A stretch of 39,790 nucleotides of DNA from Mycobacterium sp. GTDB taxonomy: Bacteria > Actinomycetota > Actinomycetes > Mycobacteriales > Mycobacteriaceae. Position numbers and translations under genes: made by a program. Under the pieces are notes generated by a model. That model was not told where the DNA came from. It saw only the letters and a list, made by a program, of their open reading frames with translations, and did not search any database. The DNA lies in NCBI RefSeq assembly GCF_035653355.1, contig NZ_DASRBZ010000340.1:1-39790 (forward strand), written 5' to 3'. How positions within the stretch are numbered: position 1 is the first letter of the stretch; each line of letters starts with the position of its first letter. Below are positions 10,115 to 38,486 of the stretch, piece after piece.

Positions 10115-12736
10115 TCAGGCGCCCAACTCGATGCGGTGTGCGCCCTGAACGCCGTCATACCGAGTGGGAGTGCATGTCAACACGATCAGCTGTCCATGGG
10201 CGCCGACCGCGTCGAACACCTCCCCCATCTTGACCAGCCGGTCGGGATCGGTGAAGCCCAGCGCGTCGTCGATGAGCACCGGGACAGTGTCTTCCTTCGC
10301 GACCAACGCCGCGCCCGCCAACCGGACCAGGATGCCGAGTTGCTCTTTTGCTCCGCCTGAGAGCGATTCGTAGGGCACGGTGCGGCCATCGAGGGTTCGG
10401 CTGCGGATACTCAGGTCGCTGTCGACGTCAACCTCGAAAGTGGGCCCGAAGACAGGGCGACCGAGCCGCTGCAGTTCGGTGCGGAACGGCTCGACGTAGC
10501 GCAACCGCGTGTTGTCGCGGTGACGGACCATCACCGAGCGCAGCAGTTCCGCAGCACGCGCCCGGCGGCGCACCCGCGAGTATTCGGTCGCGGCATGCTC
10601 CCGGCGTGTTTCGGCGGCGTCGAGCTTTCCCTTTCGTCCTTCGGTGCCGAACACAGTTAACTCCACTGCGATGTCATGCAGCGCGCGCGCCGTTTCCTCA
10701 CGGCGGGTTCGCAGCATGTCTGCCGCCTCGGTGGCGTCGGCAAGTTCGGCGGCAACTGCGTCAGGCGCTGCCGCGTCAAGCTGTCCGGAAAGGTCCGCGA
10801 CCCGCTGGCGGGCTGCTTGGGCGGCCCGCAGATCGGAATCCGCTGCGGCGGCCAAGTCCTCGTCGGTGCGGGATGCCCGCTGCTGGGCCAGCTGGGCAGT
10901 CGCGGCATCCAGCTCCGTCCGGTGAGTGGTCAGCTTGTCGTGCAAAACCGCTGCGCGGGTGGATGTCTCGGCGACCTGGGCGGCTGCGGCGGCTGAAACC
11001 TGGCGGCAATCCTGGCAGCGGACGCCCGCCTGCAGGTGAGCCGCATCGGCCGTGTCGACCTCGGCGCGGGCGGCGGCGAGATCGACGGTGGGCTCACCAG
11101 ACCCGTCGCGCTGACCGGCACGCAATTGAGCCCGCCGGGCACGCAGGTGCTCGACATCGTCGTCACCACAGAGTGCGGACAGCGTGGCGGTCAGCTGGTC
11201 GCGGTTGCTGTACAGTTCGCGGCGCCGCTTTTCGGCCTGGCGTGCCGCGGCCAGGTCAGCGACCTCACCAGCTGCCAGCGCAGCAGCGAATTCGCATTGG
11301 GCAGCAGCATATTCGGCTTCGATGTCGCGGGTAGTGGCGCCGGGACTGAATCGCGCTGTCAGCACACCGGAAACCACGACCTCGGTTGGGCCGGTCACCG
11401 TCGTCGACCACCTCTGGCCAGCGGATAACGGGATTAGCTGCGCGCCGGCCTCGAGTTCGATGTCCGCAGCTGCCGTGAATTCTACTGTGGCCGAGAGTAA
11501 TTCGAGTTTGCTTTTCGCCCGGTCGACCGCTGCCGCCGCATTCTCGATGCGTTGCATGACGGCCTCGGTGAGGGCGATCCGGGATAGCTCCGCACAGATC
11601 TGTTCCCGATCGCGTTGGACGGCGTCGATCTTGGCGATCCGGGCGGCCAGGCGATTGGCCTCGTCACGTTCGGACAGCTTCTCCAACACATCTCGAGCGG
11701 TGTCGAGCCGTTGCTTGGCAGCTGCCAGCTCGGCGTTGGCTTGCTCGAGCGCGGCATCGGCGGCAGCGGCAGCCTCACGCGCTGCCGACTGCGCGTCAGC
11801 GGCTTGGCGGGCCTCGATTTCTAGGGCCGCGATGGTGGCGGCGCGGGTGTCGATGTCGGCGCGCAGCCGCAGCCGCTCGCCGTGCGCGGAGCTGGAGGCG
11901 GTGCTGGTCGCGGCGGCAGCGGTGGCGAGCAGCTCGGCTTCCCGGAGTTGCTCGGTGAGCTTCGTGATGCGCGCGGCGGCGGCTTGCGCGGCGCACTGGC
12001 GACCGTCTGCGTCGTGCTGGCGCCGGGACAACTCGGCGAGTTCATCGGTCAACGCGGCGTGCCGGCGCACCCGGTCGTCGACCTCGGCGACCGCCGCAGC
12101 GCAGCGGGCAACTTCCTCGTCGGCGTCGCGCAGACCCGCGATCGCCGCGGACCATTCCCCGGTAGGCCGTCCGGTCGGGGTGAAGTAGCGCGCGTACTCG
12201 GCCTCGATCCGCTCGATGAGCAGCGGCTCGGTGCCCGACAGCATGGCCGCGTCCCCCGCAGCAACGTCAAGGGCACGCGACAGCGCGTCACACCCGGAAA
12301 AATCTACCGCGGCGGTCGACGTCGCCTGCAGCACCCGCTGCGCCCGCCATAGCTCGGTGTCCATCGTCTCGGCCAGCATGGCGCACACGCGTTCGTGCGC
12401 CTCGTCGCCGGTCAGCTGTTCTCGATGGGGAGCCAACACCGTCAGCTGGGTCTCGCACTTCTTGTGGAACCGTTTGCGGTAGACGAATCGATAAGGGCCC
12501 GTGCTGATCTCGGCGGTGACCTCCGAGCCGACGTCGGCGTGGGTGGGCTTGACCAGCTTGACGTCTTTCTTCGTCGAGCGGTCTTTGGACTGCAGCAACA
12601 GGTCCAGCGCCTCGATCATCGACGACTTGCCGATTTCGTTGGGCCCACATAGCACAACCACTCCGCTGTCGGGCAGCTCGATCTCGCGGTGCGCGATGCC
12701 GCGGTAATTCGTCAGGACCAGCCGGTGCAGTTTCAT
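10115..12736 (-). CDS. SbcC/Rad50-like coiled-coil ABC ATPase (Rv1278 ortholog)
   Basis: Walker A GPNEIGKS, long Ala/Glu-rich coiled coil, LSGG signature, Walker B VLIDD. Confidence 0.88.
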   Translation of the reverse strand: MKLHRLVLTNYRGIAHREIELPDSGVVVLCGPNEIGKSSMIEALDLLLQSKDRSTKKDVKLVKPTHADVGSEVTAEISTGPYRFVYRKRFHKKCETQLTVLAPHREQLTGDEAHERVCAMLAETMDTELWRAQRVLQATSTAAVDFSGCDALSRALDVAAGDAAMLSGTEPLLIERIEAEYARYFTPTGRPTGEWSAAIAGLRDADEEVARCAAAVAEVDDRVRRHAALTDELAELSRRQHDADGRQCAAQAAAARITKLTEQLREAELLATAAAATSTASSSAHGERLRLRADIDTRAATIAALEIEARQAADAQSAAREAAAAADAALEQANAELAAAKQRLDTARDVLEKLSERDEANRLAARIAKIDAVQRDREQICAELSRIALTEAVMQRIENAAAAVDRAKSKLELLSATVEFTAAADIELEAGAQLIPLSAGQRWSTTVTGPTEVVVSGVLTARFSPGATTRDIEAEYAAAQCEFAAALAAGEVADLAAARQAEKRRRELYSNRDQLTATLSALCGDDDVEHLRARRAQLRAGQRDGSGEPTVDLAAARAEVDTADAAHLQAGVRCQDCRQVSAAAAAQVAETSTRAAVLHDKLTTHRTELDAATAQLAQQRASRTDEDLAAAADSDLRAAQAARQRVADLSGQLDAAAPDAVAAELADATEAADMLRTRREETARALHDIAVELTVFGTEGRKGKLDAAETRREHAATEYSRVRRRARAAELLRSVMVRHRDNTRLRYVEPFRTELQRLGRPVFGPTFEVDVDSDLSIRSRTLDGRTVPYESLSGGAKEQLGILVRLAGAALVAKEDTVPVLIDDALGFTDPDRLVKMGEVFDAVGAHGQLIVLTCTPTRYDGVQGAHRIELGA

Positions 12737-13890
12737 GCCGCACCCCGGTCGCGATCGGCAAGCCGCAGAAGCAGCGCCAACGCCGCCTGGGCGTCATCGG
12801 CGGCATCGCCCTCTCCAGCGCGGGCAGTCGCGACCAACTCGTCGACGGCGTCGGCGGCGAACCCGCCGATACCGAGGTCGCTGAACTCGCCGTCGGCCGG
12901 GATCACGGCCAGGTCGCTGTGCCGCTCCCACAGGCCGAGCCAGGCGAACAGCCTCGAGTACTTGTCCAAACAGGCGTCCAGGGCGGCACGGTCGGTGACG
13001 GTCAGCGACCCGGTCAAGGCCAGCCGCACGACCGTGCGGTCCTTGTCGGTCATCTGGTCCAGGTTGAGGTCCAGGTCGGCGATGTCGCGGTTGTTGTCGA
13101 CCTGGCGGCGCAGGGTGAGGAACCGCCAGCGACCGACGCGGCGAGCCTCGACGTTGACCGCCCGCTTGGGGTCGGCTTCGTCGATGTCGACGATCAGGAC
13201 GTGCCCGGGGTCGGATTCGACGTCGTCGAAGTTGGTGACCTCTGGTGAGCCGGAGTACCACACCCGAGGGCTGCTGCCGACCGTGGTGCGGGAATGCTTG
13301 TCGCCCAGCGCAACATAGTGGACCAGACCGCGGGCCAGTGCATCCTCCAGCGCGGCTAGCCGGATGACGGCGGGTCTGCCGGGGTCGGGGTCGAGCACAT
13401 CGACACCGCCGTGCGCGACGAGTATTCGGGTGACCCCGTCGTTCGGGACGCCGTCGAGCACTTCGCCAACCAGGTCGGTGGTGGGCGACTTCGAGCGCCA
13501 CGGCGCGGCGACGATCTGGACCCCCGGCCGCACCTGGTGCACCCCGGCCCGGTCGAGCACCACGACGTTGTCCGGGCGTTCGGCAGTGAACAGTGCGCTG
13601 GTGTACAGCGACGACGCATCCAGCGGGTCGTGGTTGCCGGGCAGCAGATAGACCGGAATGCCGATGGCGCGCATGGCTTCCAGGGACTGACTGACTACCT
13701 GCGGAGACAGCTGGTTGTGTTCGAAGACGTCTCCGGCGACCACCACGAATTCCGCGCCCACTTCGGCCGCCAGCTCACCCAGCCCGGCCACCGCGTCGCG
13801 GCGGGCCGCTGAATAGCGCGGCTGCGCTTCCCCCGCCAGGAAGTGACGGGTCATGCCCAGCTGCCAGTCGGCGGTGTGCACGAACCGCAT
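12733..13890 (-). CDS. SbcD/Mre11-like metallophosphoesterase nuclease (Rv1277 ortholog)
   Basis: HTADWQLG, AGDVFE, PGNHD, AHG and LGDKH motifs; ATGA overlap with the ATPase gene. Confidence 0.9.
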   Translation of the reverse strand: MRFVHTADWQLGMTRHFLAGEAQPRYSAARRDAVAGLGELAAEVGAEFVVVAGDVFEHNQLSPQVVSQSLEAMRAIGIPVYLLPGNHDPLDASSLYTSALFTAERPDNVVVLDRAGVHQVRPGVQIVAAPWRSKSPTTDLVGEVLDGVPNDGVTRILVAHGGVDVLDPDPGRPAVIRLAALEDALARGLVHYVALGDKHSRTTVGSSPRVWYSGSPEVTNFDDVESDPGHVLIVDIDEADPKRAVNVEARRVGRWRFLTLRRQVDNNRDIADLDLNLDQMTDKDRTVVRLALTGSLTVTDRAALDACLDKYSRLFAWLGLWERHSDLAVIPADGEFSDLGIGGFAADAVDELVATARAGEGDAADDAQAALALLLRLADRDRGAA

Positions 13891-30416: not shown

Positions 30417-31226
30417 GTGACTGACACAGCGCTGCCAGTGGAGTTGCGCGAACGCGACCCGCGGTTCATTCGTACGATGCTGCCGACTCTGTGGCTCATG
30501 GCGAGCGTCTGGTTTCGCGCCGAGGTCGACGGCTTCGAGAATGTTCCGGACGAGCCGGTGCTGTTCGTCGGCAATCACAGCGGCGGCGGCGCGACGCCCG
30601 ACACCGCTATCTTCCTGCTTGCCTATAACACATACTTCACGGTCGAGGGCCGACCGCTGTACGCCTTGGCGCATGACATCCTCACCAGGACGCCAGGCTT
30701 TGGTCCGCTGATGCGCAAGCTTGGAGTCGTTCCCGCCCACCATTCCTGCGCCGAAAAAGTTTTCACCAGCGGCGGTTCGGCCCTGGTCTACCCTGGCGGC
30801 GACGTCGAGGCGCTGCGGCCTTGGCGTGACCGCAACAGAATTGTGTTCTCCGGCCGAAAGGGCTTCCTGCAGCTCGCGCACCGATGCAACGTCAAGATCG
30901 TGCCGGTCGTGGCCACCGGCGGTCACGACACCTTCTTTGTTCTCAACGACGGCCAGCGCACCGCCAAGGCGCTGCGATTGGACAGAGTGACGCGTGTCAA
31001 AACCCTACCCGTGACTCTCAGCATCCCGTGGGGGCTGTCACCTGTTCCACTGCCGTTTGTTCCGCTGCCGGCAAAGATCCGGGTGCAGGTGCTCGAACCG
31101 ATCGACCTGCGCGCTCGATTCGGCCAGGAGCCGGACTGGGATCACGCCTACGACTACTTCACCAGCGTCATGCAAGTTGGACTGTCACGGTTGGCCAGTA
31201 AAACGGTTGTTCCGATGATCAGGTAA
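30417..31226 (+). CDS. Lysophospholipid/diacylglycerol acyltransferase (PlsC-like)
   Basis: FVGNHSGG..PD, LVYPGG and GRKGF motifs. Confidence 0.85.
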   Translation: MTDTALPVELRERDPRFIRTMLPTLWLMASVWFRAEVDGFENVPDEPVLFVGNHSGGGATPDTAIFLLAYNTYFTVEGRPLYALAHDILTRTPGFGPLMRKLGVVPAHHSCAEKVFTSGGSALVYPGGDVEALRPWRDRNRIVFSGRKGFLQLAHRCNVKIVPVVATGGHDTFFVLNDGQRTAKALRLDRVTRVKTLPVTLSIPWGLSPVPLPFVPLPAKIRVQVLEPIDLRARFGQEPDWDHAYDYFTSVMQVGLSRLASKTVVPMIR

Positions 31227-31230
31227 GGCG

Positions 31231-31707
31231 ATGGCGCAAACTGTCACGGTCGCCAAGCGCATCCGCCGGCCGCTCGAAGAGGTGGGCGCCTTGGTGGCCG
31301 ATCCGCACCGGTTCATCCCTGCACTGGCCACAATGGGCCGCTGCGAATACATCGCCGACAGCGACCAAGGGCAGCTGTGGGACGTATTTCTGGTCAGCGG
31401 AACCCTGCACCTTGGCGGCCGGGTGCTGGTGACGCACAGCGAAAACGGCCGGCTGAGCTGGCGATCGCTGCGCGGAACCCGTCACACGTTGGAAGGCCGC
31501 GTCGAGCGCGACGGCGACGCATGCCGCATCACCTTGGCCTTGACCTATTCACTGACCGGCCTGGTGATCGCCCGGTTCAACGAACTTATCGGACGCGCCA
31601 TCGTGGCCCGCAACCTGGAAGCCGCCGCCGAGGAGCTGCGCCACCGACTTGAATTCGAGAACGGCAACGTGCCGATCGACGAGTGCCGCGATTCTCGCTC
31701 TTCGTAG
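31231..31707 (+). CDS. SRPBCC/polyketide cyclase-like (START-fold) protein
   Basis: Beta-strand pattern, 'VADPHRF' N-terminal helix and C-terminal helix typical of SRPBCC; starts 4 nt after the acyltransferase stop. Confidence 0.65.
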   Translation: MAQTVTVAKRIRRPLEEVGALVADPHRFIPALATMGRCEYIADSDQGQLWDVFLVSGTLHLGGRVLVTHSENGRLSWRSLRGTRHTLEGRVERDGDACRITLALTYSLTGLVIARFNELIGRAIVARNLEAAAEELRHRLEFENGNVPIDECRDSRSS

Positions 31708-31773: not shown

Positions 31774-31878
31774 TGTAGGTTCCCAAACTGCGTGGCGGAC
31801 GCTGAGACCCCTACCTGCTACGTTGCAGATTTCTCATCAAATTGGCGGATGCGTTTTTCTCATCTTCGTGGCGGATCC
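31774..31878 (+). repeat. Left end: terminal inverted repeat plus three ~21-bp putative transposase-binding repeats
   Basis: TTCCCAAACTGCGTGGCGGAC (31780-800), TTTCTCATCAAATTGGCGGAT (31830-50) and TTTCTCATCTTCGTGGCGGAT (31856-76). Confidence 0.8.
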
Positions 31879-31937
31879 TAGATCCGTGCGGTTGTGCAAA
31901 TTTTGATTCCACAGAATGCGCGGACCTCCGTGGCCGT

Positions 31938-33374
31938 TCAAGCTCGACCGAGCGGAACTGGGTGGGGGTGGGAATCATCCCAGGGCTCACCAACAGTTGG
32001 CAGGATGCGGACAAGTACGTGCCGCGTGCCGGCCTCACCGACGTATTCGTCAGCTAATTGTCTGACGGCGGTGCGGGTCTTGGTCTCCATCGTGCCGACG
32101 ACGCCGTCTTTCGACTTGATCGTCACCTCGGTGGTCTCGTCAAGCTCGGCGAGACCGACGTAATCGTAGAGGAAGCCACGTAGGAATATGTTCGTGAAGT
32201 CCTCGCGTACGACTTTGATGATCTCGTCCCAGAACGCGTTGCGATCGGCTGCAAGGATGGCTTCGCTGGTCAATTGAGGATCGCTAGCCCGATGCGCGGC
32301 AATCATCGGAATGGGGTGCGCGAGCGTGACCCACACCGATGGGAACAGCGGTGCTACGGCCCGAAGAGATTGTTCGTCGTCTTCAGGAAGAACGAACCCG
32401 GCTTGGCGCTCGGGGAGCGTATCAATGAGTCGCTGTACATAGGCGTCGTGGTGCCAGCCGACCATGAACTCGAGGTGCTTCACGGCTACGCGGTTCTCGA
32501 ACAGGCTAGTGAATAGTCTCGCGATGCTCGTTGCATCGAGTTCTATGGCCGGAACAAGTTCAATGTGGCTACCTTCGATTCGAAGGTATGGTTCCTGAGT
32601 CAGCGACCCAAACACTTCCTTGTTGTCATCAGCGGCGTCATCGAGGGTGATTTCGCTACCTTGTAGCAAGCGGTTAATGAGGTCTGCCTTGATGCTGTGA
32701 CGTGCTTCTGCCCGCGCTTGGGCATCGTCTGCAGCTAGCAGGCTCCCACTGACGGAGCCCGCGAGCGCTTCACGAAGACTCTCAACCTTCTTGGCGGGCA
32801 AGCGATTACCGCGAGCGTCGACGACCGAATACTCCTCGTCATTCCACCAGACAACCCAGAAGTAGCCGCCGCCGTAGTACGCGGCCTCCACCCGGGAAGT
32901 ACTAGTACGGAATTGCTTCTCTACAGCTAAGCGAACTGTGTCCTCTGTTGCGATCTCACCTGCCTCGCACGCCCTCCGCAGGAGTTGCTTGCCGTCAAAG
33001 ATGAAGACGCCCTCGTCCTTTTTCTCAAGCGACGCGAAGCTGCCGCGGACGTTGCCGTTCACCCCATTTAAGGCGACGAGCATACCTACCGTTGCGGGCT
33101 TGTCGGCTCGCGCGAGAAAGAGCTTCCCAAGAAACTTCTGCCAGGTGGGCATGTCAACCGGGTCTGCATACGCTTTTGCCTCGCACAGAAGCGGTAACAC
33201 ATGCGATGCCCCCATTACTCCGACCTCGCGTGCACCGATGACGTCGAGCTCGTTACCGCCGGATCCAACGACGTTGGAGTACACGCTTCCGTAGCCCTGG
33301 CTCTCGAGCTCGGTATGAACGAGTGCCTCCAGCTGCGCACCCTTGTCTTTGGCGCTGACTCCCAAAACCATCAT
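31938..33374 (-). CDS. Mrr-like PD-(D/E)xK restriction endonuclease domain fused to an uncharacterised C-terminal region (478 aa)
   Basis: KGAQLEALV...GNELDVIG...LCEAKAY...WQKFLG motif pattern; GGAGGT RBS 6 nt before ATG 33374. Confidence 0.75.
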   Translation of the reverse strand: MMVLGVSAKDKGAQLEALVHTELESQGYGSVYSNVVGSGGNELDVIGAREVGVMGASHVLPLLCEAKAYADPVDMPTWQKFLGKLFLARADKPATVGMLVALNGVNGNVRGSFASLEKKDEGVFIFDGKQLLRRACEAGEIATEDTVRLAVEKQFRTSTSRVEAAYYGGGYFWVVWWNDEEYSVVDARGNRLPAKKVESLREALAGSVSGSLLAADDAQARAEARHSIKADLINRLLQGSEITLDDAADDNKEVFGSLTQEPYLRIEGSHIELVPAIELDATSIARLFTSLFENRVAVKHLEFMVGWHHDAYVQRLIDTLPERQAGFVLPEDDEQSLRAVAPLFPSVWVTLAHPIPMIAAHRASDPQLTSEAILAADRNAFWDEIIKVVREDFTNIFLRGFLYDYVGLAELDETTEVTIKSKDGVVGTMETKTRTAVRQLADEYVGEAGTRHVLVRILPTVGEPWDDSHPHPVPLGRA

Positions 33375-33726
33375 GGCGGCACCTCCGACTGCTACGGCAA
33401 AACGACGAGACAAAATGTGTCCGTAACAGGCATCACCCGAGCTGCTTACCGCAGCCTAGCCGACTGCTGCGGTGTTTCGACCGCCTGCTTAGGAGGCGCA
33501 CCGCTCGGCGGAGCTCTTTCGGCGTCAGCCGGGTGTGTTCTCGGCGGAAGTCCCGCTGTAGTTCATCGCCGGTTGGAATCCGTGGGCGTCAAGCCGACGA
33601 AACCAGATCGTCGGCGTGGTCGCACGGGAAGGAAGCTCGACGACGCTACGATCAGTCCCGTGAACTGGTAGCGACTCACGTCTGCCTCGGCTGGCCGGCG
33701 TTGGGAGTCGGTCGAAAGGACAACCC

Positions 33727-36700
33727 GTGGCAAGGTCGGGAGCAGAGCGGGCGCGCGGCACCGCATGGCGCATCTGGGATCTGCACGTCCATACGCCGGC
33801 ATCGATCGTTCAGGAGTACGGCGGCAACACCGATGAAGTCTGGTCAAGGTACCTCACTGAACTCGCGAACCTGCCCGAAGACATCGGTGTCATAGGGATC
33901 AATGACTACTGGTTCCTCGATGGGTATCGGCGTGTTTCCGAAGCTTGGCGGAGCGGTAGGTTGCCGAACTTGGACGCGATATTCCCGGTGGTTGAGATGC
34001 GCCTGGATCAGTTCGGCGGTACCGAAGGCAAACTGTCACGTGTCAATCTTCACGTCGTCTTCGATCCAGACCTCAACCCGGATGTCATCCAAGCTCAATT
34101 CCTGAATGCTCTCCAACCTAAGCTGAGACTCTCCCCTGAGCACGAGTCTTTGGGATGGCAGGGCGTCATCACCGAAGAATCGCTAGCTGACCTCGGGAGC
34201 AAGATCAAGGAATCTGTGCCCGAAGACCAACTCAGCAAGTACGGTTCCGACCTCCGCGAAGGGTTCAACAACCTCAACGTCTCACTCGGGGATGTTCAAA
34301 ATGTGCTCTCTGGCCAGTATTTCAAAGGGAGAGCGCTGCTGGGAGTCGGAAAGACTGAGTGGGCGGATATCAAGTGGACGGATCAATCGATCGCCGCAAA
34401 GAAAAATGTCATCAACTCCGCAGACCTCATCTTTACAGCATTTCAAGACTCCAACAGGTGGAAGGCGAATGTCGAGTCTCTACGCGCAAGCAAGGTGAAC
34501 GATCGTCTTCTGGACTGCAGCGACGCTCACTATTTCGCAGGTTCGGACCAGCACATGCGCCTGGGCGCCTGTCAAACCTGGATGAACACCGCTCCGACAC
34601 TCGCCGGACTGGCATACGCACTTGGAGAGTTCGACCGCCGAGTTTACGTAGGGCTTGAACCGGTCGCTCTCGCTCGAATCCGTAGGAACCCCGAACGATT
34701 CATATCGAAAGTGACGGTGAAGTCGGATAAGGAGGACCACGAACTCTTCGATTATGAGGTCCCGCTCAACGCCGGATTCATAGCGGTCGTCGGCAACAAG
34801 GGCCAGGGCAAATCTGCCCTGCTTGACTGCATAGCCCTTGCCGGCAACTCGTCACGCAACAGGGAATTTGCATTCCTCACACCGACGCGCTTCCTCAGCA
34901 CCACAAGTGTGAAGGTCGCCAGAGAGTACTACTCGGAGCTCGAGTGGGCTACTGGAACGACGCGTCGTGCTCAGCTTCCTGACGAACACGATCGGTCTGC
35001 CCCCGTGTATGTCGAATACCTGCCGCAGGCTTTCGTCGAACGTGTCTGCAACATCGACCCTGCCATCGGCGACGGGGACGAGTTCGAGCGCGAGCTACGC
35101 GTCGTTTTGTTCACGCACATTCGAGAAGAAGAGCGGTCAGGACAGAAGACGTTCGACGCGCTCCTCGCTCAAAAGACGCGCGCATCGCAGGACACCATCA
35201 ATCGCTTACGTGACGACCTCCGAGCAGTCATCAATTCCTACGTATCGATCGCCTCGTTCCGCGCGGAGAATCGGCTGCCTGAGGTCGAGGGGCGCCATTC
35301 GTTGAAGGAAAACGAGGTAGCAGGCGCCGAAGCGGCACTGGAATCCGCAAGGGCCGCGCTCGCTGAGATCGACTTGGCTAGTCGCGATGATGGTGAACTC
35401 GAAGCCCTTAAGCAAAGATCCGAGGAAATCGAATCTGCGCGAACCGAAGTGCTTAACAAGCGGACTGAGAACGAACAGCGTCAAGCACGGATTCGACAGG
35501 CTGTCAGCACGATGGAGACAATCGCTCAAGAAGCCGAGGTTCTCCGCACGGACGCTGCCGAGCTCAACGCCCGGGCAGCGGACTTCTTCACCGCCGATGG
35601 CGATCCGTATGTATCTGTGACCATCGACAACATTCGCTATGACGCCTGGCGCGCGACCGTTGAGGCAGACCTTGCTGCAGCAAGAGTCGAGCACGACGCG
35701 CTGGTTCGGGACCTCGAAACGCAAGAGGAAGCACGGCGCCGAAATGCAGAGTCGCTCGCTGCCGCTGATAGCGCACGCGAGCGTGCCCGTCAGCGAGTCC
35801 TCCAGTCAGAGGAACGCTTAGCAGCCTTAGTTGGGGACGAGAACGACGAGGAATCACTCAGCGGCCTTCGCGCGCTACGCGCTCGTATCACCGAGGCTCC
35901 CGCGGAGATGGAGAGCCTGCGCCAGGAGGTCATCGAGCACGCCGGCCGCATACACAGGGCACTCCGCGCCCAACTCGACGCAGTAGAAGACCTTTATGCA
36001 CCTGCGTCTGAATTCATTGCGCAAGCCGAGGTCGTTCGGAATGCAGGCCTCGAGTTCAACGCAGAGCTTCGTATGCTGCCGACTTGGCGGAGTATTCCAA
36101 GGAGCCTCGACGGTCGGCGCAACGGCGACTTCACTGACTGGCTCGCTGAGTTGCCCCAGCGGATTGAGGACACGAGTTGGGACCAGCTCTCCCCGCAGCT
36201 CTTGGAGGCCCTCGTCCGCTTAGAACACGAACGAGGGGAGCCTGACGATCCGTTCAGGAATCCCGCGCACGCCCTGCGCGGGACCACGGACCTGGACGAA
36301 TTCTTAATGAGCATGTTCGACCTGTCATGGCTAGAAGTTCGCTTCGGTCTGACTGGCGACGGTCTACCGCTATCCCAGCTGTCTCCGGGCCAGCGCGGGC
36401 TCGTCCTCGCGCTGTTTTACCTCGTAGTTGACCGTCGTACCACGCCACTGCTTCTCGATCAGCCGGAGGAGAACCTCGACAACGAGACCATTGCATCGAA
36501 GCTTGTTCCCGCGATACACGAGGCCGCCGGGCGGCGTCAGACCATCGTGGTCACGCACAACGCAAACCTGGCCATTGTCGGCGATGCTGATCAGATCATC
36601 CACTGCCAATTGCGAGATCTGCGGTTTACCGTCAGCAGCGGAAGCATCGCTGAGCTCGACGTCGCACAATTCGCGTTGAACGTCTTGGAAGGGACCAAGC

Positions 36701-36753
36701 CTGCGTTCGACAACCGCCGTCATAAGTACGAAGCGTTCCCTGAACTCACATGA
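33727..36753 (+). CDS. PHP domain + coiled-coil ABC ATPase (Ppl-like / TrlF-family), putative anti-phage protein
   Basis: PHP motifs WDLHVHTP, INDY and CSDAH; Walker A GNKGQGKS (34792); long coiled coil; LSPGQ; LLLDQPEENLDN; VTHNAN; AAGGA RBS. Confidence 0.85.
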   Translation: MARSGAERARGTAWRIWDLHVHTPASIVQEYGGNTDEVWSRYLTELANLPEDIGVIGINDYWFLDGYRRVSEAWRSGRLPNLDAIFPVVEMRLDQFGGTEGKLSRVNLHVVFDPDLNPDVIQAQFLNALQPKLRLSPEHESLGWQGVITEESLADLGSKIKESVPEDQLSKYGSDLREGFNNLNVSLGDVQNVLSGQYFKGRALLGVGKTEWADIKWTDQSIAAKKNVINSADLIFTAFQDSNRWKANVESLRASKVNDRLLDCSDAHYFAGSDQHMRLGACQTWMNTAPTLAGLAYALGEFDRRVYVGLEPVALARIRRNPERFISKVTVKSDKEDHELFDYEVPLNAGFIAVVGNKGQGKSALLDCIALAGNSSRNREFAFLTPTRFLSTTSVKVAREYYSELEWATGTTRRAQLPDEHDRSAPVYVEYLPQAFVERVCNIDPAIGDGDEFERELRVVLFTHIREEERSGQKTFDALLAQKTRASQDTINRLRDDLRAVINSYVSIASFRAENRLPEVEGRHSLKENEVAGAEAALESARAALAEIDLASRDDGELEALKQRSEEIESARTEVLNKRTENEQRQARIRQAVSTMETIAQEAEVLRTDAAELNARAADFFTADGDPYVSVTIDNIRYDAWRATVEADLAAARVEHDALVRDLETQEEARRRNAESLAAADSARERARQRVLQSEERLAALVGDENDEESLSGLRALRARITEAPAEMESLRQEVIEHAGRIHRALRAQLDAVEDLYAPASEFIAQAEVVRNAGLEFNAELRMLPTWRSIPRSLDGRRNGDFTDWLAELPQRIEDTSWDQLSPQLLEALVRLEHERGEPDDPFRNPAHALRGTTDLDEFLMSMFDLSWLEVRFGLTGDGLPLSQLSPGQRGLVLALFYLVVDRRTTPLLLDQPEENLDNETIASKLVPAIHEAAGRRQTIVVTHNANLAIVGDADQIIHCQLRDLRFTVSSGSIAELDVAQFALNVLEGTKPAFDNRRHKYEAFPELT

Positions 36754-37096
36754 GTCTCGCTTTCGTGTATCCGTGAGCCTCATGTCCAGTGGCACTACGC
36801 GGCCAAGCTTGAATCATTCCCGCCGCAAGTTTCCCTCGACAGTTCGTAATAGTTGCGTAGTCCGTAGAACTCGTCGGCGATATTCATGGCTACCTAGTGG
36901 TCGCGGCACCATGCCGATAACTGCGTAATATGTCGTCGCCGTCGTGCCGGTCGCTGGTGACATCGTCCCCAGAATGACGTGTCTGCCCGTCGGTGCCCAT
37001 GCCGCGCCTCCTAAACGGGATGCCGAATTGCTCGGCCGGCGCCGCAGTAATCACCAATCGCAGCCATCCGCTGTAAGGGATCGTTACAGACGTAAT

Positions 37097-37316
37097 GACC
37101 TCGTCAAGCATGACCAATCCACGACCGTGGGAACCATCACCGAAGCGGGCTTGCAGTCTGTGACAGGCGATTCGGCCCGGATCCTGGTGAGTGTATCGGT
37201 GAAGAGAACAACTGCAGTTTCACCCGCGCCACGGCAAAATAGCTTCCGGATGCGTATCGATGTGAAAACGGGTCGGCGATGGGGCGAAGGTGTCCAACGT
37301 GGAATTCATATCGTGA
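37097..37316 (+). pseudogene. 3' fragment of an Mce-associated membrane protein (Mam-type), frameshifted
   Basis: Reads DLVKHDQSTTVGTITEAGLQSVTGDSARILVSVSVK..FRMRIDV, then shifts +1 in the A-run at 37265-68 to KRVGDGAKVSNVEFIS*. No 5' half or TM segment. Confidence 0.75.
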
Positions 37317-37650
37317 AAACCCTGGTGCCATAGCGGGATTGGCCCAGTAACAGCGCGAAGCCGAAGAACCGGCCCGTCGAGGTTCTAGCCGCGGCAGCGC
37401 CAGCGGCAGTTTCTCGTGGACAACTGCGGTTATGCATGCCAGTAACAGCGGAGTCTAGTCCTAAACCGCTCCCTACCCAGAAACTCGCGCCTGCTGAACA
37501 CGCACCGTGACCGCTAACAGCTGTGAGTTAGCAACCGTTACAGGATATTTCGTCATACCAGCCGGGTAGTTGGCATTGCGCGCGGCCCTATGTTTTGTGG
37601 CGTCAACGCGCATGCAGCCAACGCCAGAGATCCGAGTAGTGAGGCAGCCG

Positions 37651-37914
37651 TCAGCGCCTGTAAACGTCCGCGCGATGATCGACACGCTGAATCAGCACCA
37701 GTGAGTGATCCTCGTCGATCCGGTATAGCAGGCGGTACGGGCCGCGCCGGGCGCTATGCAGCCCGGTCAGTTCACGCCTCAGCGGCTTGCCGACGCGGCG
37801 CGGTGCGTGCGCCAGCTCGCCGAACGCGAACTCAATCACGGCCGCCAGCACCCGCGGCGGCAACTTGTGGAGGTCACGCCGCGCGATGGCGGTGAACCGA
37901 ACCGTGTAACCCAA
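37651..37914 (-). CDS. relG: RelE-family toxin (RelG/RelE2-like)
   Basis: YTVRFTAIARRDLHKLPPR..VGKPLRREL..SARRGPYRLLYRID..DHRADVYRR, very similar to Rv2866 as recalled. Confidence 0.88.
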   Translation of the reverse strand: MGYTVRFTAIARRDLHKLPPRVLAAVIEFAFGELAHAPRRVGKPLRRELTGLHSARRGPYRLLYRIDEDHSLVLIQRVDHRADVYRR

Positions 37915-37922
37915 CGGCGGCG

Positions 37923-38204
37923 TCAGTCGGCACGCCGAGGCACGCCGAACTCGGCGCGAATTTCATCCTCGCCGTACGTGCGCCCAGCGGCAATGTCGGC
38001 ATCGGCCTCGGCGATTGATTCCTTTATCCCTGGCCGAGAAAGCCAGTACAGCGTCTCTTGGAGCGATTCCCATTCCTCGACGCCGACGAGCACCGCCGCC
38101 GGCGCACCGTTTTTGGTGATCGTGATCTGGTCCTGCGTTTGGGCGACCGCATCGACGTACTCGTTAAGCTTGTCTTTAATCTTCGAAATCGGCAGTATCC
38201 GCAC
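37923..38204 (-). CDS. relF: Phd/YefM-family antitoxin (RelF/RelB2-like)
   Basis: MRILPISKIKDKLNEYVDAV..ITITKNGAPAAVLV..WESLQETLYWL, very similar to Rv2865 as recalled; lies upstream of the toxin. Confidence 0.9.
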   Translation of the reverse strand: MRILPISKIKDKLNEYVDAVAQTQDQITITKNGAPAAVLVGVEEWESLQETLYWLSRPGIKESIAEADADIAAGRTYGEDEIRAEFGVPRRAD

Positions 38205-38210
38205 GCCACC

Positions 38211-38230
38211 ATGTTAGCCTAAATATAGGC
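38211..38230 (-). promoter_or_regulatory. Leaderless relFG promoter and autoregulatory palindrome
   Basis: -10 TAACAT (38216-38211) lies 6 nt before the GTG start, next to the palindrome GCCTA-AATA-TAGGC (38217-30). Confidence 0.55.
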
Positions 38231-38426
38231 CAGCGACAGGCGCTAATTAAGGCCCCATAATGTTACGACACCACCGACCGACTTGGCCTTACAAGTAGTC
38301 ACCGGCCACAGCAGCATCTTCTAACTGTCGGTGATGGGGAAGCCGCAACCGCAACCTCGAGTGAATCGCCGAGGCTCGCCCCTGATCCATACCTAGCCGA
38401 GCTAATCAGTTTCCGGTCTTTGTGAC

Positions 38427-38486
38427 GGATCCGCCACCTTTACGTCGCGAAGTCTGAAATTCCGCCACTTAAAAATGGAACCTACA
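38427..38486 (-). repeat. Right end: terminal inverted repeat plus two putative transposase-binding repeats
   Basis: Reverse complement reads TGTAGGTTCCATTTTTAAGTGGCGGA...GTGGCGGATCC. TCCGCCAC cores are at 38430-37 and 38461-68, and GGATCCGCCAC (38427-37) is the exact inverse of 31868-78. Confidence 0.8.

Follow-up and report, generated by a model that had tools for sequence, protein, structure and literature searches.

A Mrr-like nuclease and a TrlF-family PHP-ATPase as probable independent defence cargo of a transposase-less Tn7-like element in Mycobacterium sp.

The subject of this report is a pair of divergent genes in a 39,790-nucleotide stretch of DNA from Mycobacterium sp. (NCBI RefSeq assembly GCF_035653355.1, contig NZ_DASRBZ010000340.1), the whole of which we call the window. 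The presence of PE/PPE genes in another genome of the genus is in keeping with a mycobacterial source. Gene A encodes a Mrr-like nuclease, and gene B a TrlF-family protein in which a PHP domain is fused to an SMC-type ATPase; together with a toxin–antitoxin pair they are contained in a 6,713-bp Tn7-like element at 31774-38486, which bears out the proposal, made earlier from the letters alone, that the genes lie on a mobile element. That sequence-only reading left two interpretations side by side: two independent defences packaged on one element, or a sensor–effector pair of a new kind. The former fits the data, and we consider it likely that A and B are two independent single-gene defence proteins, presumably directed against phage, that are co-packaged as cargo of an element without transposase genes. 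This is preferred because the two families occur apart, the genes are divergent and sister elements carry unrelated cargo. The genes are arranged as follows (ORF, open reading frame; aa, amino acids):

31938..33374, minus strand: gene A, Mrr-like nuclease, 478 aa, ORF intact
33375..33726, no strand: divergent intergenic region between A and B, 352 bp
33727..36753, plus strand: gene B, TrlF-family PHP/SMC-type ATPase, 1,008 aa, ORF intact, GTG start at 33727

The sequence-only reading had been built on two large intact genes lying head-to-head across some 350 bp, and this description is accurate. The ATG at 33374 is the start used across the A family, the longest A ORF beginning with TTG at 33413. 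A and B do not form one operon, which we count in favour of independence, and the spacer presumably holds both promoters; a scan for the sigma-70 consensus gave no site within 33375..33726. The earlier statement that no methyltransferase is nearby also stands, in that none of the 31 window ORFs scanned matched a methyltransferase family. Both genes look foreign, because the GC content at third codon positions is 0.67 in each, compared with 0.84-0.85 for the FAD oxidase and P450 genes on either side.

The evidence that A and B live apart comes from several directions. The A-family loci collected number 29 (15 from genomes, 12 from metagenomes and two from viral contigs, with one sequence present three times and a near-identical group of four), and neither tblastn nor a profile gave a TrlF/Ppl-type gene at any of them, 23 having more than 2 kb of sequence upstream where B would lie. 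The same profile, as a positive check, finds Ppl at 2.6e-23 and the Yersinia TrlF at 1.5e-28. Conversely, A was not found in any of nine TrlF-bearing genomes searched (in sets of five and four), with the positive control G812 detected, nor was B found in the five A-bearing genomes that were searched whole. An all-versus-all comparison of 167 ORFs around 24 A loci revealed no recurring partner beyond duplicates, mobility genes and two exceptions, namely one Schlafen-domain pair and one methyltransferase/helicase pair in two Bacteroidales loci. Contig size was used as a proxy for linkage among cluster representatives only; between 56 A rows and 119 of 120 B rows a single size coincided, 4,452 bp, and a contig of that size cannot hold both genes. 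An obligate A–B pair is not supported at the family level, and each family lives mostly without the other.

There is also a relative in which a close copy of B has a different neighbour. Four of the 11 listed sequencing runs were mapped to the window, a comparison in which relatives below 80% DNA identity would be missed; the first of them (X1) may derive from the source sample itself. One of these runs (X3) yielded a 22,970-bp contig that carries B at 93% DNA identity (33501-36793), the similarity being kept from 33501 onward and thus into the A/B spacer. The contig continues for 10.7 kb upstream of B, and that sequence does not match A at 80%. Read depth in this run was 0.7 or less over A and 20.9 over B, although low cover alone proves nothing.

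The element that carries the genes was delimited by its ends and by comparison with related genomes. Besides A and B it comprises the following features:

31774..31898, plus strand: left end, terminal TGTAGGTT followed by three repeated sites ending TGGCGGA (at about 31781, 31831 and 31857)
36754..37650, no strand: 0.9 kb without a credible gene or RNA family in ORF and Rfam scans
37651..37914, minus strand: ParE/RelE-type toxin, the third cargo module (PF05016, 42.6 bits)
37923..38204, minus strand: Phd/YefM antitoxin (PF02604, 79.7 bits)
38396..38486, minus strand: right end, inverted TGTAGGTT and two TGGCGGA sites, 82-86% match to the right ends in L067 and L073

The gap between the FAD oxidase and P450 genes is less than 1.1 kb in 19 of the 21 relatives in which both flanking genes could be placed, and about 8.2 kb here. 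The ends are of the TGT...ACA type with repeated internal sites, the two ends are identical at 19 of their first 27 bases, and an independent contig from run X2 starts to match exactly at 31774, that is, at TGTAGGTT. The TGGCGGA sites are likely to be binding sites for the transposase (TnsB). CCAGC stands on both flanks with one extra base at the left, so that there is no exact 5-bp duplication (CAGCC vs CCAGC). Amongst five sister end pairs, target duplication was exact in one and held at four of five bases in another, it being noted that some pairs may join different elements; the exact 5-bp duplication seen in a complete sister copy (L064) is CCACC.

No tnsB, tnsC or tniQ gene lies between 31774 and 38486. 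Such genes are found behind related ends in G083, one of five genomes searched for TniQ, and this copy is therefore considered to be non-autonomous. In G083 the related ends directly precede operons for an unassigned protein of 276-328 aa, an HTH/rve protein of 720-745 aa, a TniB/AAA protein and TniQ; from their order and domains these would be TnsA, TnsB, TnsC and TniQ. A cognate transposase was not found in the source genome (4.47 Mb, 91% complete) with one TnsB query or PF09299, and the sole TniB match there was rejected as a generic ATPase match, also seen in 13 of 14 controls. The left end was matched in 61 of 399 other genomes of the genus (about 15%). Sister ends were recovered in 23 stretches (L053, L061-L080, L093 and L094), in some of which they stand in tandem 4-8 bp apart; none contains A or B, and their cargo is varied and mostly metabolic (80 of 179 ORFs scanned). 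On these comparisons the TGTAGGTT-ended elements appear to be a widespread family within the genus, most of them Tn7-like cargo elements without a transposase; copies in G083 seem to be autonomous. They share with Tn7-like transposons the TGT...ACA termini, the internal repeats, the 5-bp duplication of a sister copy, tandem stacking and the TnsB/TnsC/TniQ-type operons behind related ends, whereas the present copy is without transposition genes and without an exact duplication. A literature search on non-autonomous Tn7-like elements in mycobacteria found no description of the TGTAGGTT family.

The identities proposed for both proteins on first reading, a Mrr-like nuclease and a PHP-ATPase, proved correct. 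A scores 25 bits against Pfam Mrr_cat (cut-off 21). Its predicted model (mean predicted local distance difference test score, pLDDT, 89.2) has an N-terminal Mrr-like PD-(D/E)xK nuclease (about residues 1-135), an alpha/beta domain, a winged-helix-like segment (about 215-298) and a C-terminal part. The model matches AF1548, AspBHI and MspJI with Z scores of 9.5, 8.8 and 8.3 (root-mean-square deviation, rmsd, 2.5-4.2 over 111-138 residues), matches that cover the nuclease domain only; the winged-helix match of residues 215-298 is weak, with Z under 5. The catalytic residues E16, D44, E65 and K67 do not vary among 80 sequences, whose identities range from 19% to 48%.

A profile search of the family gave 213 clusters at E≤1e-30, and the best 150 hits were mostly about 460-510 aa long and matched over near their full length. 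Nonsynonymous divergence (pN, 0.18-0.26) was below synonymous divergence (pS, 0.56-0.71) in all four pairs compared. From lengths, profile matches and conservation, A represents an unnamed, conserved, full-length family of stand-alone size. Of 20 distant members scanned, 12 have a Pfam match to Mrr_cat; DUF1963 was matched in a single fused protein, whose extra domain also gave the only NCBIfam match. PADLOC, which the sequence-only reading had proposed to run, did not assign A to a system: it matched the nuclease part only, as PDC-S02, and did so in 28 of 53 close members. The C-terminal 340 aa match no named family in Pfam, NCBIfam or the ESM Atlas; the last gave nothing usable for residues 140-478, and for the whole protein only Mrr_cat clusters under 0.8. 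No SRA match was obtained for A, which excludes nothing, the fold searches having used no separate model of the C-terminal part. Longer, fused forms of A were absent from 7,992 candidates, in itself weak evidence. A protein of 666 aa amongst the best 150 profile hits (P0300) has a TIGR02996/DUF1963 region N-terminal to an A-type nuclease. A had no match in 72,556 plasmids and was found neither in 50,697 phage records nor in 53 genomes of one order.

With the Mrr-like type IV nucleases (Mrr, MspJI, AspBHI) A has in common the Mrr_cat match, the catalytic fold and the lack of need for a methyltransferase. In those enzymes the nuclease is C-terminal, behind a DNA-reading domain, which in MspJI and AspBHI is an SRA domain that reads modified cytosine, and Mrr has a QxK motif. 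In A the nuclease is instead N-terminal with E65-x-K67, and there is no Mrr_N match, so that A is set apart from Mrr proper. A precedent for the order of A is a validated E. coli defence described as an N-terminal Mrr-family nuclease with a separate domain (PMC9519451). The possibility that A is a type II enzyme with a cognate methyltransferase was rejected, as no methyltransferase is a fixed neighbour at A loci. The chances seem to us evenly balanced that A by itself constitutes a single-gene family directed against phage, not described before and with a sensor domain of a new kind, which is likelier than that it is part of a two-component system in the making.

B matches the NCBIfam TrlF model (NF045780) at 531.1 bits, well above the cut-off of 350, over model positions 1-944 of 944. 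It scores 97.6 bits against Ppl (NF042955), for which the cut-off is 1000, and assignment to Ppl was rejected on this score. PADLOC gave weak matches of B to AriA and LmuB that do not extend beyond the ATPase motifs, and these assignments were rejected likewise. The predicted model (pLDDT 86.5) contains a PHP barrel at about residues 13-316, which matches EndoQ (Z 14.7, rmsd 3.7, 216 aligned), RNase AM (Z 13.3) and TM0559 (Z 13.2), and an SMC-type ABC head split around a long coiled coil (Z 15.7, rmsd 3.9, 257 aligned). The best Foldseek matches are Smc, JetC, Rad50, MukB and Lamassu chains, and the ATPase fold resembles those of LmuB, JetC and Rad50. B is thus a PHP and SMC-like ABC ATPase fusion with intact motifs, as expected of TrlF. 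The positions concerned are:

PHP residues (from alignment): H20, H22, D60, E90, H109, D266, H268
ATPase motifs: Walker A 356-363; Q-loop Q434; signature LSPGQ 885-889; Walker B LLLDQ 908-912; H-loop H944
Coiled coil: about residues 476-766

In 55 aligned relatives the Walker A, Q-loop, signature, Walker B and H-loop residues are all invariant, as are the PHP residues H22, D60, E90, H109, D266 and H268; H20 is kept in 54. Related proteins covering at least 80% of B occur in 28 plasmid records, and B-like matches, all distant, in three of 311 genomes around G812.

TrlF takes its name from the trlR–trlF–trlG operon of Photorhabdus laumondii (PMC7554251). B shares with TrlF the match to the whole model and the PHP-ATPase fusion. 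TrlG is a Schlafen AlbA_2 protein with an HATPase domain, and neither a TrlG nor a TrlR ORF stands beside B in the window, in contrast to a Yersinia locus (L083), where the trl operon layout is present. B belongs to a longer clade (about 1,008 aa) with NDY at the xDH/NH motif, which in a quick tree lies far from the TrlG-linked Yersinia protein, the branches being long and the placement unsure. In domain order and in the unusual Walker B sequence DQPE B resembles Ppl, with an HHalign probability of 97.9 over the C-terminal ATPase lobe and most PHP motifs aligned; it differs in being about 120 aa longer and in having Tyr and Lys at two His positions. No Ppl structure turned up in sequence or fold searches with B, which excludes nothing. 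Ppl, as described in a review, is a single-gene 3'-5' exonuclease activated by nucleoside triphosphate depletion and 3'-OH ends (PMC12904381), and according to a preprint it is toxic without RecBCD (PMC13648713).

By analogy with Ppl, B would dimerise through its ABC heads and bind free DNA ends made in phage replication; as nucleotide pools fall it would be released, and its own PHP domain would then degrade DNA. From its fold and context, A would cut DNA with the N-terminal PD-(D/E)xK domain. The remaining two thirds of A, towards the C terminus, likely hold the nuclease in check or direct it, in response to DNA that is foreign or modified or to a protein of the phage; A would then need no methyltransferase, because the C-terminal part would play this role. 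For its movement the element probably relies on a Tn7-like transposase provided from outside, and the ParE/YefM pair may help to keep it. A defensive role is in keeping with the surroundings of relatives: a Pfam scan at A loci (104 of 167 ORFs) included integrases, transposases, Schlafen, Abi-alpha, KAP NTPase, GmrSD and restriction-modification genes, and B loci adjoin relaxases, integrases, an XhoI system, SIR2 and an unrelated Mrr_cat gene.

Several observations weigh against two genes that act independently, and the persistence of the cassette in close copies is the main one. In run X2 a single 16,220-bp contig matches 31774-33451 and 33535-36904, arranged as in the window but with other flanks; its A and B have 93% and 96% amino-acid identity, and it is inserted at another site. 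Contigs of 6,642 bp occur amongst both the A and the B cluster members (91% and 94%, respectively), which, to judge from the equal size, are probably linked, and a further run (X5) contains fragments of both genes. Thus the neighbourhood co-occurrence by which the sequence-only reading was to be judged is absent family-wide, yet it cannot strictly be said that homologues never co-occur. It should be added that the B loci examined are mostly distant, the TrlF genes of the genomes without A having 26-42% identity to B where measured. The PHP site also gives reason for caution. Two His positions of Ppl and the Yersinia TrlF, which we take to be PHP metal ligands, are Tyr61 (55 of 55) and Lys209 (51 Lys, four Arg) in the B clade, in an alignment of low identity, and the nuclease activity of B itself is therefore less certain than that of Ppl. 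Finally, a literature search did not find anti-phage activity for TrlF or the A family, either of which could be contained in the supplementary candidate lists of defence screens.

These points could be taken to mean that A and B form a young or facultative sensor–effector pair, in which the ATPase of B responds to DNA ends or to a fall in nucleotides by activating the nuclease of A, the PHP domain being weakened or regulatory. A parallel would be Lamassu, where LmuB switches on LmuA. The divergent cassette persists in copies some 5-10% diverged and at a different insertion site, the PHP site of B is without two histidines of Ppl, and TrlG accompanies the founding TrlF in its operon (PMC7554251). 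Shared transposon ends, however, make it expected that close relatives keep the pair; linkage is seen only in copies over 90% identical, each family stands alone at every more distant locus examined, and other sequence lies upstream of a 93%-identical B. The genes are not co-transcribed, and seven PHP residues are invariant or nearly so. Lamassu, PARIS and PrrC/RloC are conserved operons or single fusions, whereas here the genes are divergent, the families do not co-occur and B carries a PHP domain of its own. We therefore regard a sensor–effector pair as improbable, and give no better prospects to its evolutionary form, in which the TrlF clade exchanged part of its PHP metal site for sensing and now recruits a freshly captured Mrr-like nuclease, as a two-component defence in formation spread through mycobacteria by a transposase-less Tn7-like vehicle.

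It is unlikely, if somewhat less so, that at least one of the genes is not anti-phage at all, B serving in plasmid exclusion, DNA repair or a stress-triggered growth arrest of the kind proposed by analogy with the Photorhabdus trl locus, or A keeping the element stable as a nuclease of the selfish or addiction type. The only TrlF phenotype found in the literature is temperature restriction, which maps to trlG, no trlF mutants having been recovered (PMC7554251); in addition, PADLOC offers no system that matches A over its length, and sister elements mostly have metabolic cargo. Set against this are the patchy distribution (B is in two of 400 other genomes of the genus), the defence-rich mobile islands in which relatives are found, and the domain layout of B, which is that of the validated defence Ppl. 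That A and B are decaying passengers without current function has very little to recommend it: although there is no transposase, the target duplication is imperfect, 0.9 kb is apparently non-coding and a cognate TnsB was not found with one query in a 91%-complete genome, neither ORF is truncated, no family-invariant residue has been lost, and close copies are intact at 91-96% identity. We accordingly retain the view that A and B are separate defences sharing a vehicle.

Some further features of the element family and of the window may be recorded. An apparently autonomous copy at L093:8523-12693 has two TniQ genes (849 and 415 aa), which suggests two targeting routes, and an IS256-type fragment at its start. 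Next to sister ends there are an 864-aa AAA_13/SMC ATPase (L071:516-3107) and an ApeA-like HEPN protein (L062:14965-16716). A ParE/YefM pair 76% identical to the present one occurs in L060 (genome G011) without a match to the element ends. The segment 36754-37650 has lower GC and no relative among the fetched loci, and may be the remnant of a cargo gene; across the island, scans for Rfam families, tRNAs and promoters did not rise above chance. Outside the element, at 30417-31707, lies an acyltransferase and polyketide-cyclase pair, which is missing from the FAD oxidase–P450 gap in most relatives (in G023 and G014 it is on other contigs) and would for this reason be a separate insertion at the same variable site. 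At 10115-13890 a calcineurin-like phosphoesterase gene precedes that of an 873-aa AAA ATPase, the two resembling SbcD/SbcC, and one A locus (L019) has an AAA_21/DUF4276 pair.

The two-component reading does not hold up and should not be prioritised as such; were a cooperative pair real, it would illustrate the way in which ATPase sensors gain effectors. The locus does provide two single-gene candidates for phage defence in mycobacteria: one is a TrlF clade, the other an unnamed nuclease family with C-terminal domains that fall outside named families. A further outcome is that Tn7-like cargo elements of one family, without a transposase, are common in the genus. Such defence genes could affect phage host range in mycobacteria.

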